Shown here: positions 22,854 to 31,849 of the stretch, piece by piece
How the letters are laid out: each line of letters opens with the position of its first letter
Position numbering within the stretch: position 1 is the first letter of the stretch
Assembly (NCBI RefSeq): GCF_036507355.1
Contig: NZ_AP027877.1
Origin: Escherichia coli
GTDB taxonomy: Bacteria > Pseudomonadota > Gammaproteobacteria > Enterobacterales > Enterobacteriaceae
Direction: 5' to 3' (one strand)
DNA: 64,000 bases
Translations under genes and position numbers: made by a program
Notes under the pieces: generated by a model
Told to the model about the DNA's origin: nothing
The model's database searches: none
Seen by the model: the letters and a program-made list of their open reading frames with translations, nothing else

Positions 22854-24311
22854 GTGTCTGAACTGTCTCAATTATCTCCACAGCCGCTGTGGGATATTTT
22901 TGCCAAAATCTGTTCTATTCCTCACCCGTCCTATCATGAAGAGCAACTCGCTGAATACATTGTTGGTTGGGCAAAAGAGAAAGGTTTCCATGTCGAACGC
23001 GATCAGGTAGGTAATATCCTGATTCGTAAACCTGCTACAGCAGGTATGGAAAATCGTAAACCGGTCGTCTTGCAGGCCCACCTCGATATGGTGCCGCAGA
23101 AAAATAACGACACCGTGCATGACTTCACGAAAGATCCTATCCAGCCTTATATTGATGGCGAATGGGTTAAAGCGCGCGGCACCACGCTGGGTGCGGATAA
23201 CGGCATTGGTATGGCCTCTGCACTGGCGGTTCTGGCTGACGAAAACGTGGTTCACGGTCCGCTGGAAGTGCTGCTGACCATGACCGAAGAAGCCGGTATG
23301 GACGGTGCTTTTGGCTTACAGAGCAACTGGTTGCAGGCTGATATTCTGATTAACACCGACTCCGAAGAAGAAGGTGAAATCTACATGGGTTGCGCGGGGG
23401 GTATCGACTTCACCTCCAACCTGCATTTAGATCGTGAAGCGGTTCCAGCTGGTTTTGAAACCTTCAAGTTAACCTTAAAAGGTCTGAAAGGCGGTCACTC
23501 CGGCGGGGAAATCCACGTTGGCCTGGGTAATGCCAACAAACTGCTGGTGCGCTTCCTGGCGGGTCATGCAGAAGAACTGGACCTGCGTCTTATCGATTTC
23601 AACGGCGGCACACTGCGTAACGCCATCCCGCGTGAAGCCTTTGCGACCATTGCTGTCGCAGCTGATAAAGTCGACGCCCTGAAATCTCTGGTGAATACCT
23701 ATCAGGAGATCCTGAAAAACGAGCTGGCAGAGAAAGAGAAAAATCTGGCCTTGTTGCTGGACTCTGTAGCGAACGATAAAGCTGCCCTGATTGCGAAATC
23801 TCGCGATACCTTTATTCGTCTGCTGAACGCCACCCCGAACGGTGTGATCCGCAATTCCGACGTGGCAAAAGGTGTGGTCGAAACCTCCCTGAACGTCGGT
23901 GTGGTGACCATGACTGACAATAACGTAGAAATTCACTGCCTGATCCGTTCTCTGATCGACAGCGGTAAAGACTACGTGGTGAGCATGCTGGATTCGCTGG
24001 GTAAACTGGCTGGCGCGAAAACCGAAGCGAAAGGCGCATATCCTGGCTGGCAGCCGGACGCTAATTCTCCGGTGATGCATCTGGTACGTGAAACCTATCA
24101 GCGCCTGTTCAACAAGACGCCGAACATCCAGATTATCCACGCGGGCCTGGAATGTGGTCTGTTCAAAAAACCGTATCCGGAAATGGACATGGTTTCTATC
24201 GGGCCAACAATCACCGGTCCACACTCTCCGGATGAGCAAGTTCACATCGAAAGCGTAGGTCATTACTGGACACTGCTGACTGAACTGCTGAAAGAAATTC
24301 CGGCGAAGTAA
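22854..24311 (+). CDS. pepD: cytosol nonspecific dipeptidase (485 aa, GTG start)
   Basis: MSELSQLSPQPLWDIFAKICSIPHPSYHEEQLAEYIV.. Confidence 0.95.
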   Translation: MSELSQLSPQPLWDIFAKICSIPHPSYHEEQLAEYIVGWAKEKGFHVERDQVGNILIRKPATAGMENRKPVVLQAHLDMVPQKNNDTVHDFTKDPIQPYIDGEWVKARGTTLGADNGIGMASALAVLADENVVHGPLEVLLTMTEEAGMDGAFGLQSNWLQADILINTDSEEEGEIYMGCAGGIDFTSNLHLDREAVPAGFETFKLTLKGLKGGHSGGEIHVGLGNANKLLVRFLAGHAEELDLRLIDFNGGTLRNAIPREAFATIAVAADKVDALKSLVNTYQEILKNELAEKEKNLALLLDSVANDKAALIAKSRDTFIRLLNATPNGVIRNSDVAKGVVETSLNVGVVTMTDNNVEIHCLIRSLIDSGKDYVVSMLDSLGKLAGAKTEAKGAYPGWQPDANSPVMHLVRETYQRLFNKTPNIQIIHAGLECGLFKKPYPEMDMVSIGPTITGPHSPDEQVHIESVGHYWTLLTELLKEIPAK

Positions 24312-24322
24312 TTATTTGATTT

Positions 24323-24358
24323 GCTGCCGGATGGCGTTTAATCGCCTTCCGGCAGTTT
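24323..24358. terminator. Hairpin between convergent pepD and prfH remnant
   Basis: ctgccggatggcg..cgccttccggcag inverted repeat followed by TTTCA. Confidence 0.45.
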
Positions 24359-24367
24359 CATCCTTCA

Positions 24368-24925
24368 TTATCCTTCGATAAAAGCCATCCCTGTGAACGT
24401 TCGTCGCGGGTTGCCACGTTCAATCTGGTGATGGAACATTCGCCGCTGCGATTTCAGCGCCGCGCTATTTTCCTGTTGCTGCTGCCCCAGCTTCCAGGCA
24501 ATCAGCAATCGCGCCAGCCGTTTGTTAGCATGCTGGCTGCGCTCTGACTGAACCTTCACGCTAATACCGGATGCCAGATGCGTGGCGCGTACCGCCGAGT
24601 CGGTTTTATTGACATGTTGACCGCCCGGCCCCGACGAACGCAGCGTCTCATAACGGATTGCATCCGATTGTTCCTGCTCATCAGCGGTAAAACGCCCAAT
24701 GCCCAGAAACCAGTTTTTGCGCCCATGATGAGGCCGATACGGACTCGGACAAATCCACTGAATAGTGCCGCACCAACTTTCGCTTAATGCCCATGCGTTA
24801 TCGCCATCCAGAGAAATCAGCGCCGAACGCAGCGTGTCAGAGTAGCGGCCTGTTTCTGTTTCCAGCACCGTTACCGCGACGTCTTGTCGGGTAAAAACGA
24901 CCAACAGAGAAGAACGCTGCGCCAA
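24368..24925 (-). pseudogene. prfH: peptide chain release factor H homologue, N-terminally truncated
   Basis: Carries the GGQ motif (..[21 protein letters not shown]..) but lacks the N-terminal segment of full-length PrfH. Confidence 0.75.
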
Positions 24926-25103
24926 TCGGGTAGCCGCGTCCGGGGTGTAAATCTGGCATCCCCACTACGCGCTGCATGTTGGGTAAATTTGCCGTGGTGT
25001 GTAATTGTTGGATCGCTAAACTCTCGATCCACAGGTCATCAGATGCGATAATAAATACCGCATCGGATAAGGGACGAATATATTTGCCCATGTACCATTC
25101 CAT
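24837..25103 (-). pseudogene. ykfJ: RtcB-family RNA ligase N-terminal fragment
   Basis: ..[31 protein letters not shown] then out of register; abuts the prfH remnant. Confidence 0.7.
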
Positions 25104-25408
25104 TTATACTCGTCATACTTCAAGTTGCATGTACTGCGACTGCGTTCGTTCACCCCAGTCACTTACTTATGTAAGCTCCTGGGGATTCACTCGCTTGTCG
25201 CCTTCCTGCAACTCGAATTATTTAGAGTATATAAATATAAAAATCAGGAAATGGCAGACGAATCCAGGGCAAGAAAAAAAGAATTAATCCTGGAAAGATC
25301 TGCAAAGAGTCATTGATAAAGGATTTGTCATGATTTACCTCCTTGCAGTTTGTGGAATAAGAAAACGCGCACATACCAGGCGGGCGTTATTTTCATTGCA
25401 AGCTGGAT

Positions 25409-25861
25409 TTAATGTTGCGGTTTATATCGCATATAAAAATTAGTAAACCAAGCTCCACGGCATTCAACGCGCTGCTGCTTAACTGTCTGAAAACCATAAC
25501 GTTCAAAAAAGGGTTTTGCGGTTATGCTGGCGTCCACCGTAAGTTCGGATTCAGACTTAATCAAAGGTTTTAACAAAGCGCTGGCAACCCCACGGCGGGT
25601 GTATTCAGGGTCAACAAATAACATATCGATATAATGTTCAATGCGGGAAATAAAACCAACCGGTTGTGCATTAATGACTGCAACCCGCACTTGTGATTTC
25701 GCGAGTTTCTCCTTCCAGCGAGATTCGTCAATCTGCGCCCAGGCGGCAATTTGTTGTGGTGAATAATGCTGACTGGCGGTCATCGTAACCGCTCTAATGA
25801 AAATAGCGCATAGTTGCTGAAAATCGCCAGGCTGATAGTTTCTTATTTGTATGTTATTCAT
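25409..25861 (-). CDS. yafP: GNAT-family acetyltransferase YafP (150 aa)
   Basis: [25 protein letters not shown]..; start codon overlaps the dinB stop (ATGA). Confidence 0.8.
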
Positions 25862-26913
25862 AATCCCAACACCAGTTGTCTTTCCATTTGCGGGTCAAGC
25901 AACGTCACGTGCAGCCCCACCAGACGCACACCTCGCCCGCCGCGGCGTTCATCCCAGGTTTTACGCGCGGTGGCGATTAAGTCAGCTTTATTCAGCCGCG
26001 GCCAGACGTGCTCCTGAGTGGTTTGCTGAAAATCGTCGAACTTTAATTTCACTCCCTGGCGAGCAATCAGTAAATCAGGTTTTACCTTTGCCAGACGGCG
26101 TTCAAGTTCCGGATACAGCCGCTCGATAATCGCTTCACATTCAGACCAGTGATGAATATCTTCCGCCATCGTGCGTTCCACGCCGACGGATTTTCGTAAC
26201 CGTTCGCTGTTAACGTCGCGCTCGTCAATCCCCTGACTACGCTCCCACAAAATGCGGCCAAATTTGCCAAAGCGTTTAAGCAGAATCACCAGATCACACT
26301 TTTGTACATCACCGCAGGTCCGCAGCCCCATCGCTTCCAGCTTTGCCGCTGAGACTTTGCCAACACCGGGAATTTTTGCCAGCGGTAAGGTTTGCAGAAA
26401 TGCCGGAACTTCTGCCGGCGTAATCACAAACTGGCCGTTGGGTTTATTCATGTCGGAGGCGATTTTGGCGAGAAACTTTACTGGTGCCACGCCCGCAGAC
26501 GCCGTCAGTTGCAGCTCGCTGAAAATCGTCTGGCGGATTTCCTGGGCGATGAGGGTCGCAGAACCGTGGCAATGGACGCTATCGGTGACATCGAGATAAG
26601 CCTCATCCAGTGACAACGGTTCAATGCGCGAGGTGTAGCGCGAGAAGATTTCACGGATATGATTTGAGGCTTCTTTGTAGGCGTCAAAGCGCCCCGGAAG
26701 CAAGGTGAGATGTGGGCATAATTTGAGCGCCATCCCTGTCGGCATAGCGCTGCGTACGCCAAATTTACGCGCGGGATAATTGGCGGTGCTGATCACCCCC
26801 CGACGTTCGCGGCTGCCGCCAATAGCAATAGGGATATCGCGCAGGGCGGGATTGTCGCGCATCTCCACTGCGGCGAAAAAGCAGTCCATATCCACATGAA
26901 TGATTTTACGCAT
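25858..26913 (-). CDS. dinB: DNA polymerase IV (351 aa)
   Basis: [34 protein letters not shown].. Confidence 0.95.
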
Positions 26914-26983
26914 TACTCACCTCTCAACACTGGTAAAGTATACAGTGATTTCAGGGTTTGAGAAATGCGTAAAGATTCAGCAT

Positions 26984-27874
26984 TTAGCGCGTTCGCTGCG
27001 AAAGCACCTGCTGCTTATCCAGCTTTTGCACCAGCGGCTGCACCACTTTATCCCCATGCTGACCAAAGTATTGATACAGCGTATCGGACGCACTTTTGGT
27101 CAGCACCATAATCTCAATACGCCGATTGCCCGCGCTTTGCGGATTTTTGGCATCCAGCAGCATCTGGTCCGCCATTGCGCTTACCTGCATCACTTTATCT
27201 TCCGGCATTCCGGCCTCTTCCAGCACCCGACGAGCTGAAAGCGCGCGATCGCCCGAAAGGTTCCAGTTGTTGTAGATATTGTTTTTGTAGGCCATCGCAT
27301 CGGTATGCCCGGTAATAATAATTTTGTTATCGAGCGAGTCGAACACTGGCGCGAGCTCCACCAGCAAAGTTTTAAAGAACGGCATAATCTGCGCGCTGCC
27401 GCGTTCGAACATATTGCGATTCTGGTCGTCTTTAATCAGCACGCGTAATCCCTGCGGGACAATCTCCATCTCCAGATTCGCTTCCATATGCGCATCACGG
27501 GCAATGGTGTTGATACTGGTTGCCAACTCGCCAAGCTCGGTGGCGGATTTCTTCTTCAGCAGCGCCGTTTTCTCATTCACATCACGCGCTTTTTTCTCCG
27601 TCTCTTCCGGCACCGCCACGGTGGCAGGTTTTGGCGGATGAGACGGGCTGATTTTATTTAACGGCGACAGCCCACCACCGTTAAAAATCGACTGCCCGTG
27701 CAGCGCGGCGATAATGCTTTCACGCTCGGATTTACTGACGCTGTTGACAATCAACTTTATCGTCGTCACCAAAGGGGCCGAGCGTATTTCCGAGGTTTCT
27801 GCCCGCTTTACCCTGGACGCGATGCCCGGCAAGCAGATGGCGATTGACGCCGATCTTAACGCCGGGTTGATCAA
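26984..27874 (-). pseudogene. lafU: Flag-2 MotB-like LafU remnant (OmpA-like C-terminal domain only)
   Basis: C-terminal OmpA/MotB domain (..IIITGHTDAMAYKNNIYNNWNLSGDRALSARRVLEEAGMPEDKV..NRRIEIMVL); N-terminal part of the ORF is non-native and overlaps lfhA. Confidence 0.6.
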
Positions 27875-29453
27875 CCAGGCACAGGCGCAAACCCGGCGTA
27901 AAGATGTTGCCAGCGAGGCCGATTTCTACGGCGCGATGGACGGGGCATCGAAGTTTGTGCGCGGGGATGCCATCGCCGGGATGATGATTCTGGCGATCAA
28001 CCTAATCGGCGGCGTCTGTATCGGCATCTTTAAATACAACCTGAGCGCCGACGCCGCCTTCCAGCAATATGTGCTGATGACCATCGGCGATGGGCTGGTG
28101 GCGCAGATCCCTTCCCTACTGCTCTCCACCGCGGCGGCGATTATCGTCACCCGCGTCAGCGACAACGGCGATATCGCCCATGACGTGCGCCACCAACTGC
28201 TGGCAAGCCCGACGGTGCTCTACACCGCCACTGGGATCATGTTTGTGCTGGCGGTGGTGCCAGGAATGCCGCACCTGCCGTTTTTGCTGTTCAGCGCCCT
28301 GCTTGGCTTTACCGGCTGGCGGATGAGCAAACGCCCGCAGGCGGCGGAGGCGGAGGAGAAAAGCCTCGAAACGCTAACCCGCACCATCACCGAAACCAGC
28401 GAGCAACAGGTCAGTTGGGAAACCATTCCGCTGATCGAGCCCATCAGTTTAAGCCTCGGCTTCAAGCTGGTGGCGCTGGTCGATAAAGCGCAGGGTAACC
28501 CGCTCACCCAGAGGATTCGCGGCGTGCGGCAGGTGATTTCCGACGGCAACGGCGTGCTGCTGCCGGAGATCCGCATTCGGGAAAACTTCCGTCTCAAGCC
28601 GAGCCAGTACGCCATTTTCATCAACGGCATTAAGGCTGATGAAGCGGATATTCCGGCGGATAAACTGATGGCCCTGCCCTCCAGCGAAACCTACGGCGAG
28701 ATTGACGGCGTGCTGGGGAACGACCCGGCGTACGGGATGCCAGTGACCTGGATCCAGGCGGCGCAGAAAGCGAAGGCGCTGAATATGGGGTATCAGGTGA
28801 TCGACAGCGCCAGCGTGATTGCCACCCATGTGAACAAGATTGTCCGCAGCTATATTCCTGATTTGTTTAACTATGATGACATCACGCAGTTGCATAACCG
28901 TTTGTCGTCGATGGCACCGCGCCTGGCGGAGGATTTAAGCGCGGCGCTCAATTACAGCCAATTGCTGAAAGTGTACCGGGCGCTGCTGACCGAAGGCGTT
29001 TCCCTGCGCGATATCGTCACCATCGCCACCGTGCTGGTCGCAAGTAGCACGGTGACCAAAGATCATATTCTGCTGGCAGCTGATGTGCGCCTGGCACTGC
29101 GGCGCAGCATTACCCATCCGTTCGTTCGCAAGCAGGAGCTGACGGTGTATACGCTGAATAATGAGCTGGAAAATCTGCTGACCAACGTGGTGAATCAGGC
29201 GCAACAGGGCGGGAAAGTGATGCTCGACAGCGTGCCGGTCGACCCGAATATGCTCAACCAGTTCCAGAACACGATGCCGCAGGTAAAAGAGCAGATGAAA
29301 GCGGCGGGGAAAGACCCGGTGCTGCTGGTGCCGCCGCAGCTTCGCCCTTTGCTGGCGCGCTATGCGAGATTGTTTGCGCCGGGGCTGCATGTGCTGTCGT
29401 ATAACGAAGTGCCGGATGAGCTGGAGTTGAAGATAATGGGGGCGCTGATGTAG
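27714..29453 (+). pseudogene. lfhA: Flag-2 FlhA-like LfhA, missing ~130 N-terminal residues
   Basis: Begins mid-protein at ..VVTKGAERISEVSARFTLDAMPGKQMAIDADLNAGLI.. (FlhA family). Confidence 0.7.
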
Positions 29454-29454
29454 G

Positions 29455-29665
<211 letters not shown>

Positions 29666-29675
29666 CTGCGCACAA

Positions 29676-30173
29676 TTATGAAATGATACGCTCCCCGGCA
29701 CTAAAATCCGTTATGTCTCCCGCCCAACCAATGGGATATAACCCTCGCGCCACATCGCGATGGAACGTTGAGAATGGCCAATCACTCACTTGCTTTACCC
29801 AGCCATGTTTCACTGGATTTATATAAATATAATCAACATGATGTCGGTAATCTGTGGTATTGCGAATGGCATGCTCCCAAAAACGCGGTTGCCAGATATT
29901 TTTCAATCCGCAAGCATGGGTGAACTGCTTTTTAATCTCCCGCCAGCGAGAGGAAAAATCATCATCGCTTTCGGGTAATGTCCATATGCAATGCATATGC
30001 TCCGGCAAAACGACCCAGGCGTTAATTTCAAAAGGTCTGTCTCGCTTAACGTTAATAATGGCGTTACGGAGCGTCTGGAACTGGGTGGTCAGAAGATGGC
30101 TTCGACGATTCCGTAAATTTACCGTGAAAAACCATGTTCCCCCCTTGATGTAATACCGACGATATTCCGACAT
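29676..30173 (-). CDS. rayT: REP-associated tyrosine transposase (165 aa)
   Basis: MSEYRRYYIKGGTWFFTVNLRNRR.. ; flanked by REP units on both sides. Confidence 0.85.
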   Translation of the reverse strand: MSEYRRYYIKGGTWFFTVNLRNRRSHLLTTQFQTLRNAIINVKRDRPFEINAWVVLPEHMHCIWTLPESDDDFSSRWREIKKQFTHACGLKNIWQPRFWEHAIRNTTDYRHHVDYIYINPVKHGWVKQVSDWPFSTFHRDVARGLYPIGWAGDITDFSAGERIIS

Positions 30174-30249: not shown

Positions 30250-30350
30250 CGCAAAAACGCACAGATTTGTAGGCATGATAAGACGCGCCAGCGTCGCATC
30301 AGGCACCTGCGTACAACTGCCGGATGCGGCGTGAATGCCTTATCCGTCCT
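30250..30350. repeat. REP unit on the other side of rayT
   Basis: Same tgtaggcatgataagacgcgccagcgtcgcatcaggca..ccggatgcggcgtgaatgccttatccg motif. Confidence 0.65.
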
Positions 30351-31098
30351 ACAAAATCGTCTCTTCCGTCAAAATCCGTCGCGCGCCCAAAAAATGATCC
30401 TGCCAGAAAGGTTCAGCTAACCGACTTACCCGAATGGTTTCCCCGGTGCGCGGTGACTCAATAAACTGACCGTCGCCCAGATACACCCCCATATGGTCGG
30501 CAATCTCGCGGCTGTGGATATGGAAAAACAGCAAATCTCCCCGGCGCAGGTCGTTATTCGCCACAATCGTTGCCCGATGGTAGTGATACATCTCATTAGC
30601 CGTACGCGGGAGCTTCGCCTCGAGGATCTTGTTGTAGGCATAAAAAACCAACCCGCTACAGTCGAAGCCTTTATCGGGCCGCGTGCCACCCCAGACGTAA
30701 GGCTTGCCAAGCTGCTGCTCCAGGCGGTGAATCGCCACTTCGGTAATGTTATGCAGATGGTCGCTGCTTAAAAAGTGGTTGTTTTCCGCCAGCGCCTGCC
30801 AGCGTCTGTCACTCGCCTTGAGCGGCGCAGGAAACCATTCTGGATGCTGTTTTATCTGTTCGCGGTTGTGCTGGCGCAGCGCCCTTCTGCTTTCGGCATT
30901 GCCTTCCACAATATAGCTGGCCTGTTTTTTCAGATGGGTTTGGTACTGTTTTAATAAACGCGCACGGTTTTGCATCCGCTGGCGGGCGGCGTAGCTGAAA
31001 GAGATATGTGATGTGGTGGCGCTGGCAAATGAAGAAAACGGCAAACAAATCAACAGTAATCCCGACAATACAAAGGATGGAATCGACGGCAAGGACAT
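30349..31098 (-). CDS. yafL: NlpC/P60-family lipoprotein peptidase YafL
   Basis: NlpC/P60 motif ..GKPYVWGGTRPDKGFDCSGLVFYAY..; start taken at MSLPSIPSFVLSGLLLICLP inside ORF 30349..31158. Confidence 0.75.
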   Translation of the reverse strand: MSLPSIPSFVLSGLLLICLPFSSFASATTSHISFSYAARQRMQNRARLLKQYQTHLKKQASYIVEGNAESRRALRQHNREQIKQHPEWFPAPLKASDRRWQALAENNHFLSSDHLHNITEVAIHRLEQQLGKPYVWGGTRPDKGFDCSGLVFYAYNKILEAKLPRTANEMYHYHRATIVANNDLRRGDLLFFHIHSREIADHMGVYLGDGQFIESPRTGETIRVSRLAEPFWQDHFLGARRILTEETIL

Positions 31099-31307: not shown

Positions 31308-31568
31308 ATGGCTGCAAATGCATTTGTTCGTGCCCGAATCGATGAGGATTTGAAGAATCAGGCGGCGGACGTACTGGCCGGGATGGGGCTGACCATCTCT
31401 GACCTGGTTCGCATAACCCTCACAAAGGTCGCGCGTGAAAAGGCATTGCCGTTTGATTTACGCGAGCCTAATCAATTAACCATTCAATCAATCAAAAACA
31501 GCGAAGCTGGCGTTGGTGTTCATAAGGCCAAAGACGCCGATGATTTATTTGATAAATTAGGAATTTAA
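31308..31568 (+). CDS. dinJ: antitoxin DinJ (86 aa)
   Basis: MAANAFVRARIDEDLKNQAADVLAGMGLTISDLVRITLTKVAREKALPFDLREPNQ.. Confidence 0.9.
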   Translation: MAANAFVRARIDEDLKNQAADVLAGMGLTISDLVRITLTKVAREKALPFDLREPNQLTIQSIKNSEAGVGVHKAKDADDLFDKLGI

Positions 31569-31570
31569 AT

Positions 31571-31849
31571 ATGATTCAAAGGGATATTGAATACTCGGGA
31601 CAATTTTCAAAGGATGTAAAACTTGCACAAAAGCGTCATAAGGATATGAATAAATTGAAATATCTTATGACGCTTCTTATCAATAATACTTTACCGCTTC
31701 CAGCTGTTTATAAAGACCACCCGCTGCAGGGTTCATGGAAAGGTTATCGCGATGCTCATGTCGAACCGGACTGGCTCCTGATTTACAAACTTACCGATAA
31801 ACTTTTACGATTTGAGAGAACTGGAACTCACGCGGCGCTCTTTGGGTAA
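31571..31849 (+). CDS. yafQ: mRNA interferase toxin YafQ (92 aa)
   Basis: MIQRDIEYSGQFSKDVKLAQKRHKDMNKLKYLMTLLINNTLPLPAVYKDHPLQGSWKGYRDAHVEPDWLLIYK.. Confidence 0.9.
   Translation: MIQRDIEYSGQFSKDVKLAQKRHKDMNKLKYLMTLLINNTLPLPAVYKDHPLQGSWKGYRDAHVEPDWLLIYKLTDKLLRFERTGTHAALFG

Follow-up and report, generated by a model that had tools for sequence, protein, structure and literature searches.

The Flag-2 deletion scar of Escherichia coli and the sequence constraint on its lafU and lfhA remnants

Genes and features of the locus

The window, that is, the entire stretch of 64,000 nucleotides analyzed here, includes a region of the Escherichia coli chromosome with the gene order pepD, truncated prfH, yafP, dinB, lafU', lfhA', REP repeats, rayT, yafL, dinJ-yafQ and dpaA, where the pair of interest, lafU' and lfhA', occupies the site between dinB and rayT/yafL (Table 1). 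In the ORF listing, this site is covered by a minus-strand ORF of 296 amino acids (26984..27874) and a plus-strand ORF of 579 amino acids (27714..29453), which overlap head-to-head by 161 nt. The Pfam search places an OmpA domain (PF00691, E = 1.3e-14) at residues 155-248 of the minus-strand ORF and matches the plus-strand ORF to FHIPEP from position 99 to position 656 of the 657-position profile (E = 1.7e-188); given that the match begins only at position 99, the N-terminus of the encoded protein is absent. Alignment to an intact Flag-2 cluster shows that the segment 26984-29453 consists of two abutting pieces, the 3' 769 nt of lafU (minus strand) and the 3' 1704 nt of lfhA (plus strand).

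Table 1. Coordinates of the remnants, the junction and the flanking features in the window
Feature	Position	Strand	Description
prfH'	24368-24893		nt 90-615 of 615
rtcB'	24885-25091		nt 1-207 of 1140
yafP	25409-25861		overlaps dinB by 4 nt
dinB	25858..26913	minus	left flank of the Flag-2 locus
lafU' remnant	26984..27752	minus	codons 53-307 and stop; lateral-flagellar MotB homologue; shared microhomology in the last 3 nt (27750-27752)
Leader of the mechanical lfhA' ORF	27714..27749	plus	non-native, 12 codons (MLSRSDLLTLLT); antisense of lafU' sequence
Deletion junction ATC	27750..27752	none	from alignment to the intact cluster and coordinates
lfhA' remnant	27750..29453	plus	codons 131-697 and stop; Flag-2 FlhA homologue; open frame
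Leader of the mechanical lafU' ORF	27753..27874	minus	non-native; antisense of lfhA' sequence
REP/BIME repeats	29456..29711; further copy 30259-30359		between lfhA' and rayT
rayT (yafM)	29676..30173	minus	REP-associated tyrosine transposase; right flank with yafL
yafL	30349-31098	minus	right flank with rayT
dinJ-yafQ	31308-31849		toxin-antitoxin pair

The overlap of the two ORFs is mechanical because each of them reads past the junction into the antisense strand of its partner until a start codon is reached. The ATG of the lfhA' leader is the antisense of the lafU codons Ser-Ile and differs in other scar-bearing taxa, and the RefSeq CDS of lafU' in K-12 starts at a GTG equivalent to position 27769. 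An earlier note on this DNA described a head-to-head overlap at 27714..27874; the ORFs do overlap there, but by antisense read-through and not as overlapping coding sequence. That the locus holds two genuine overlapping genes, or else chance ORFs unrelated to flagella, is a reading with next to no chance of being correct: it draws on the 161-nt overlap in the ORF listing, but the overlapping parts are the antisense of the partner, and the FHIPEP E-value points to flagellar ancestry. Two genuine overlapping genes, in particular, are ruled out by the lafU and lfhA homology ending exactly at 27750-27752.

The surroundings of the locus vary among strains. The yafN-yafO toxin-antitoxin pair is absent from the window between 25409 and 26913, as it is in E. 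coli 98889 and unlike K-12, where it lies beside dinB, and A30; the 4-nt overlap of yafP with dinB is likewise found in the Flag-2-positive strain 98889. The dinJ-yafQ pair is shared with K-12 and is absent between yafL and dpaA in 98889. REP/BIME arrays lie on both sides of rayT, with a 94-nt unit and a 62-nt unit that each occur three times, and the length of the spacer differs between strains. Other intact strains have a HicAB pair or an IS element after lfhA in place of rayT.

The deletion junction and the lost sequence

Flag-2 is a second, lateral flagellar gene cluster of 40 kb. The reference for an intact Flag-2 locus was that of E. coli 98889, which has the same flanks and in which lafU (924 nt) and lfhA (2094 nt) are separated by ∼40 flagellar genes and two IS elements. 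One of these, IS1, lies between motA (lafT) and the gene for a FliA-like sigma factor, and the other, IS1397, between fliD and lafA; given these insertions, the cluster denoted intact in 98889 may itself be non-functional. When aligned to both ends of the cluster, the window tracks lafU up to ...GCTGTTGACAATC and then lfhA from ATCAACTTTATC... onward. A 3-bp microhomology, ATC, is present at both endpoints (nt 156-158 of lafU and nt 391-393 of lfhA), within an imperfect 12-nt direct repeat, CTGTTGACAATC vs CTGATGATCATC, in which 9 of the 12 positions match. Relative to 98889, 40,337 bp are missing. The proposal of the earlier note that the locus is the scar of a large Flag-2 deletion is borne out by the direct joining of the two outermost genes of the cluster, by the same flanks enclosing the full cluster in 98889, and by the comparison with an intact Flag-2 cluster, against which the window turns out to lack ∼40.3 kb at 27750-27752; re-annotation yielded no longer frames of flagellar genes.

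The LfhA protein has lost residues 1-130 of 697, in exact agreement with the ∼130 missing residues given before, and its fourth membrane helix is interrupted by the break. The N-terminal membrane domain (eight helices) of a functional FlhA/FHIPEP export gate is incomplete in LfhA', and intact LfhA matches the FHIPEP profile from position 1 to position 656. LafU has lost residues 1-52, which comprise the cytoplasmic N-terminus and the sole membrane helix with its conserved Asp (FADFTLAMMALF), the proton-binding residue of the MotB/LafU stator membrane helix. The retained part, residues 53-307 of 307, encompasses the C-terminal OmpA-like peptidoglycan-binding domain together with the rest of the plug/linker, so that the earlier description of a MotB-like ORF reduced to the OmpA-like domain was correct as to the domain that is kept but omitted the plug/linker remainder. 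Intact LafU matches MotB_plug at residues 19-70 and OmpA at residues 166-259 (Pfam), and most of the MotB_plug region is gone from the remnant.

The remnants remain close to their intact counterparts. The lafU' fragment shares 97.8% identity with the 3' 766 nt of the intact lafU of 98889. Seven E. coli strains have an intact Flag-2 lfhA (as distinct from the Flag-1 flhA) at this locus, to which lfhA' is 93.9-95.8% identical, without indels. The exact 20-mer across the junction, CTGTTGACAATCAACTTTAT, is common to K-12, nine other E. coli loci and Escherichia albertii.

Coexistence of scar and intact alleles in E. coli

In 4071 of 5426 complete E. coli genomes, the match runs across the junction, a frequency of the scar far beyond chance, and in the remaining ∼1350 genomes, the match begins at the junction, as expected for intact lfhA. 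The best identity across the scar in this set of genomes does not exceed 97.6%.

The scar and intact alleles are fully intermixed in a neighbor-joining tree of 21 alleles of the lfhA 3' part. The scar-bearing strain EC32 shows no differences from the intact strains 98889 and Esc2 in 1704 nt to the right and 1053 nt to the left. Of two strains with intact lfhB-lfhA, 300709 matches the K-12 scar allele at all 2425 nt (the lfhA 3' 1704 nt, spacer and rayT, from the junction onward) and ECCTRSRTH03 at all but 1, and both carry a K-12-private SNP 9 nt from the junction, which suggests a very recent loss or gain of the cluster on a K-12-type background. The neighborhood in the window has a high dS and a mosaic structure on a fine scale. 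Compared with A30 over 22854-29453, identity is 100% for pepD and yafP, lafU' shows 2 differences, dinB has a dS of 0.14, lfhA' shows 77 differences that start right at the junction, and yafNO is missing from the window.

Constraint on the remnants

The scar alleles of the window, K-12 and A30 are separated by 76-80 differences in lfhA', none of them an indel, with a dS of ∼0.19 and a dN/dS of 0.024-0.034, and the dN/dS of lafU' is 0.00-0.04. Eight further scar genomes, chosen across the ranking, were added to these three; across the E. coli scar copies overall, dN/dS is 0.02-0.05, both frames are open and free of indels in 11 of 11 copies, and the annotation of the eight added genomes labels the fragments only as ‘incomplete', never as ‘frameshifted'. 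The functional neighboring genes dinB, rayT, yafL and dpaA have dS and dN/dS values similar to those of the fragments. Singleton changes tell the same story, with 83 synonymous and 16 non-synonymous changes in the scar alleles and 34 and 5, respectively, in the intact alleles. The fragments are constrained as strongly as intact genes, which counts against the gene-pool explanation given below. A scan for promoters and terminators is uninformative: the promoter consensus produced 4 sites, with 1.5 expected, none of them well placed.

A second deletion scar in the window (24368-25091), in which prfH' is joined to rtcB' with a 9-nt overlap at 24885-24893, serves as a control. It is common to the window, K-12 and A30, whereas both genes are intact in 98889, and the frames of the remnants are open. 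Between the deletion-bearing strains, prfH' shows 15 synonymous and 2 non-synonymous differences, with a dN/dS of 0.04; the differences in rtcB' are too few for an estimate.

Decay of the Flag-2 fragments comes into view with larger sampling. Truncated scar ORFs of E. coli form large clusters in the protein database, one of 501 amino acids (794 sequences) and two of 416 amino acids (581 and 487 sequences), and in-frame deletions are also found among the scar ORFs there.

The same junction in other genera

Truncated LfhA ORFs in other taxa have the same starting residue (INF[IV]VVTKGAER), following a leader that is antisense lafU, and at the DNA level, the two genes are joined at the same codons in Atlantibacter and in more distant enterobacterial contigs. 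The identity of LfhA' to that of the window declines from 97% in E. albertii NBRC 107761 (L011) to 90% in a Citrobacter-like contig (L111), which has a 5-codon in-frame deletion, 84% in contigs L106 and L107, 83% in Atlantibacter subterranea (L102/L103), 74% in contigs L104, L105 and L110, and 71% in contig L108. No start codon is conserved across the scar-bearing taxa. In E. albertii NBRC 107761 (L011 2974-5403), the junction is nucleotide-identical, the lafU' flank is ∼9% diverged, as is typical of the species, and lfhA' carries a 22-bp frameshifting deletion (alignment columns 934-955). A peptide-pattern scan of genome contigs was dominated by DAMPGKQM, a motif universal in FlhA, and yielded only three close relatives, the scar of E. 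albertii and two intact loci from Citrobacter; the other taxa were found via the protein database.

The genomic context of these loci is not uniform. In E. albertii NBRC 107761, homology to the window ends at the start of dinB, which apparently does not adjoin the locus. The head-to-head pairs of OmpA-domain and FHIPEP remnants in L102-L111, from Atlantibacter subterranea and metagenomic contigs, are located in different neighborhoods, often next to an NlpC/P60 (yafL-like) gene.

Both frames are open in 9 of the 10 scar copies from other taxa, the exception being that of E. albertii. Within-taxon pairs of scar alleles show 23:0, 9:0, 15:0 and 156:13 synonymous to non-synonymous differences, so that the shallow pairs from three of these taxa total 47:0. 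Recent import from intact alleles alone was considered as the cause of the low dN/dS in E. coli and dropped, since the shallow scar-scar pairs elsewhere behave in the same way, and for this reason, the account below rests on a gene pool in common and not on one-off imports. Scar and intact alleles of Atlantibacter differ by ∼1%, and an intact allele there is as close to the scars as the scars are to each other. Every named scar-bearing taxon also has intact alleles, whose share is about 25% in E. coli and in E. albertii alike.

The shared junction could be taken to represent one ancient allele that has persisted beside intact Flag-2 across several enterobacterial genera, with the fragments constrained like intact genes. 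We consider this reading unlikely; should it hold, it would imply a long-lived balanced presence/absence polymorphism of an entire organelle, or direct selection on the truncated pair, or precise excision.

Precise excision leads to a different account, in which the deletion recurs at the same two sites, by a site-specific or otherwise precise mechanism, and every scar is young enough to resemble the intact parent. The presence of the same junction in several genera is compatible with such recurrence, as are the identical flanks of scar and intact alleles on two or more E. coli backgrounds, together with the shared private SNP so close to the junction, the small palindromes seen by eye at both endpoints (CGCTGT...ACAGCG and GATGATCATC) and the adjacency of rayT; however, the annotation of the Flag-2 cluster includes no recombinase, the endpoint repeat matches at only 9 of 12 positions in E. 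coli, and the repeat on the lafU side shows poor conservation in the taxa with 74% and 71% identity despite the same junction. The poor conservation of this repeat, combined with the sharing of the junction, also led us to reject independent microhomology-mediated recurrence as a general cause. Excision by RayT, a thought prompted by the adjacency of its gene and by the palindromes, was likewise set aside, as nothing tested supports a role of RayT: this protein acts on REP hairpins, and there are none at the endpoints. Finally, the documented event in ST131 is a gain and fits homologous recombination: Flag-2 was reportedly gained within clade B of this lineage from an ancestor with the 1700-bp and 769-bp fragments (PMC5369007). 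All things considered, recurrent precise deletion is highly unlikely.

Preservation of the remnants

The strong constraint invites the suggestion that the truncated pair, an FlhA without TM1-3 and a MotB without its membrane helix, was co-opted and is kept by direct purifying selection. This suggestion gains from the dN/dS of ∼0.03 between scar alleles, from the lack of non-synonymous differences in the shallow scar-scar pairs, from the persistence of both open frames in taxa in which LfhA' is only 71-84% identical to that of E. coli, and from the treatment of lafU' as an ordinary CDS in RefSeq, but is hard to reconcile with the deletion of the native promoters and start codons, the absence from LafU' of an export signal for its periplasmic domain, and the equally low dN/dS of the control remnant prfH'. 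Furthermore, E. albertii and several large E. coli clusters show frameshifts, nonsense mutations or internal deletions, and the intact alleles in every named scar-bearing taxon are able to supply selected sequence. We therefore regard co-option as unlikely. Judging from the sequences, we do not think that either fragment has a function of its own; both are probably non-functional remnants, because the promoters, start codons and membrane-anchoring N-termini were lost, the replacement start codons appear to be accidental and vary from taxon to taxon, the rtcB'-prfH' control behaves in the same way, decay becomes apparent at larger sampling (the E. albertii frameshift, the truncated clusters and the in-frame deletions), and intact alleles accompany the scar in each named taxon.

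The locus is a standard Flag-2 scar, the remnants of which are probably preserved through a gene pool shared with functional copies. A single illegitimate recombination event between the short imperfect direct repeats in lafU and lfhA would have removed ∼38-40 kb of lateral-flagellar genes; of the two outermost genes, which face outward, only the 3' parts would have remained, fused to each other where their 5' parts had broken off. The scar and the intact cluster would then be two coexisting alleles of one locus, at roughly 75% and 25%, that interconvert by homologous recombination: the flanks would recombine freely, heteroduplex could reach the border of heterology, and deleterious changes in the 3' parts of lfhA and lafU would be exposed to selection whenever they are placed in an intact cluster. 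This cause of preservation, along with the age of the junction, is inferred, and the case for the shared gene pool is one of population-genetic reasoning, not of a fitted model. An argument to the contrary is that, with ∼75% of the history spent in a neutral scar state, some relaxation of constraint would be expected.

Remnants that are present in ∼75% of a species and show no relaxed selection make a clean case for research on pseudogenes and on the turnover of gene clusters. If preservation through the shared gene pool is correct, low dN/dS and open frames are not evidence of function as long as an intact allele segregates, and the remnants would act as homology arms for the loss and regain of a 40-kb cluster. 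The occurrence of the junction across genera, together with the unrelaxed constraint, is the part of modest interest that goes beyond the known scar.

Comparison with known systems

The scar is a well-known feature of E. coli K-12, and its identification as put forward in the earlier note adds nothing new. The lfhA' and lafU' genes of K-12 MG1655 (fhiA b0229 and mbhA b0230) lie in the same order, dinB, lafU', lfhA', REP, rayT, yafL, with a junction that is the same to the base and fragments that are likewise 769 and 1704 nt long; the K-12 allele differs from that of the window at 97 of 2470 positions, nearly all of the differences being synonymous. The K-12 RefSeq annotation lists a 786-nt lafU CDS and an FlhA pseudogene described as ‘incomplete; missing N-terminus'. 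The recognition of fhiA and mbhA as remnants of lfhA and lafU goes back to Ren et al. 2005, to whom PMC3032704 and PMC6993521 refer for it, and the direct repeats that border the deletion are also credited to Ren et al. 2005 by De Maayer et al. 2020 (PMC6993521). The latter authors report the truncated pair in 76 of 76 Flag-2-lacking strains among 100 E. coli and in 531 of 4028 Enterobacterales (PMC6993521). Fragments of ∼1700 and 769 bp have been described in the ST131 strain S250 (PMC5369007), and these lengths match the 1704 and 769 nt in the window.

The intact Flag-2 loci of E. coli 042, W, 98889 and NC101, among others, occupy the same chromosomal site and have the same flanks as the scar in the window. 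They contain full-length lafU (307 amino acids) and lfhA (697 amino acids), the 3' parts of which are 94-98% identical to the window, and between the endpoints, ∼40 kb with roughly 40 flagellar genes.

The rtcB'-prfH' (ykfJ/prfH) scar, 2 kb from the Flag-2 scar, is likewise the product of an internal deletion that fused the remnants of two adjacent genes, but only ∼1 kb was deleted there, and the genes are co-directional, not divergent.

Beyond E. coli, Flag-2-negative E. albertii with a truncated Flag-2 locus has been reported by Carter et al. 2024 (PMC11420993). This truncated locus and the lfhA-lafU deletions of other Enterobacterales (PMC6993521) resemble the scar in the window in having two truncated border genes within ∼2.5 kb, and differ from it in their flanking sequences, which are typical of each species.
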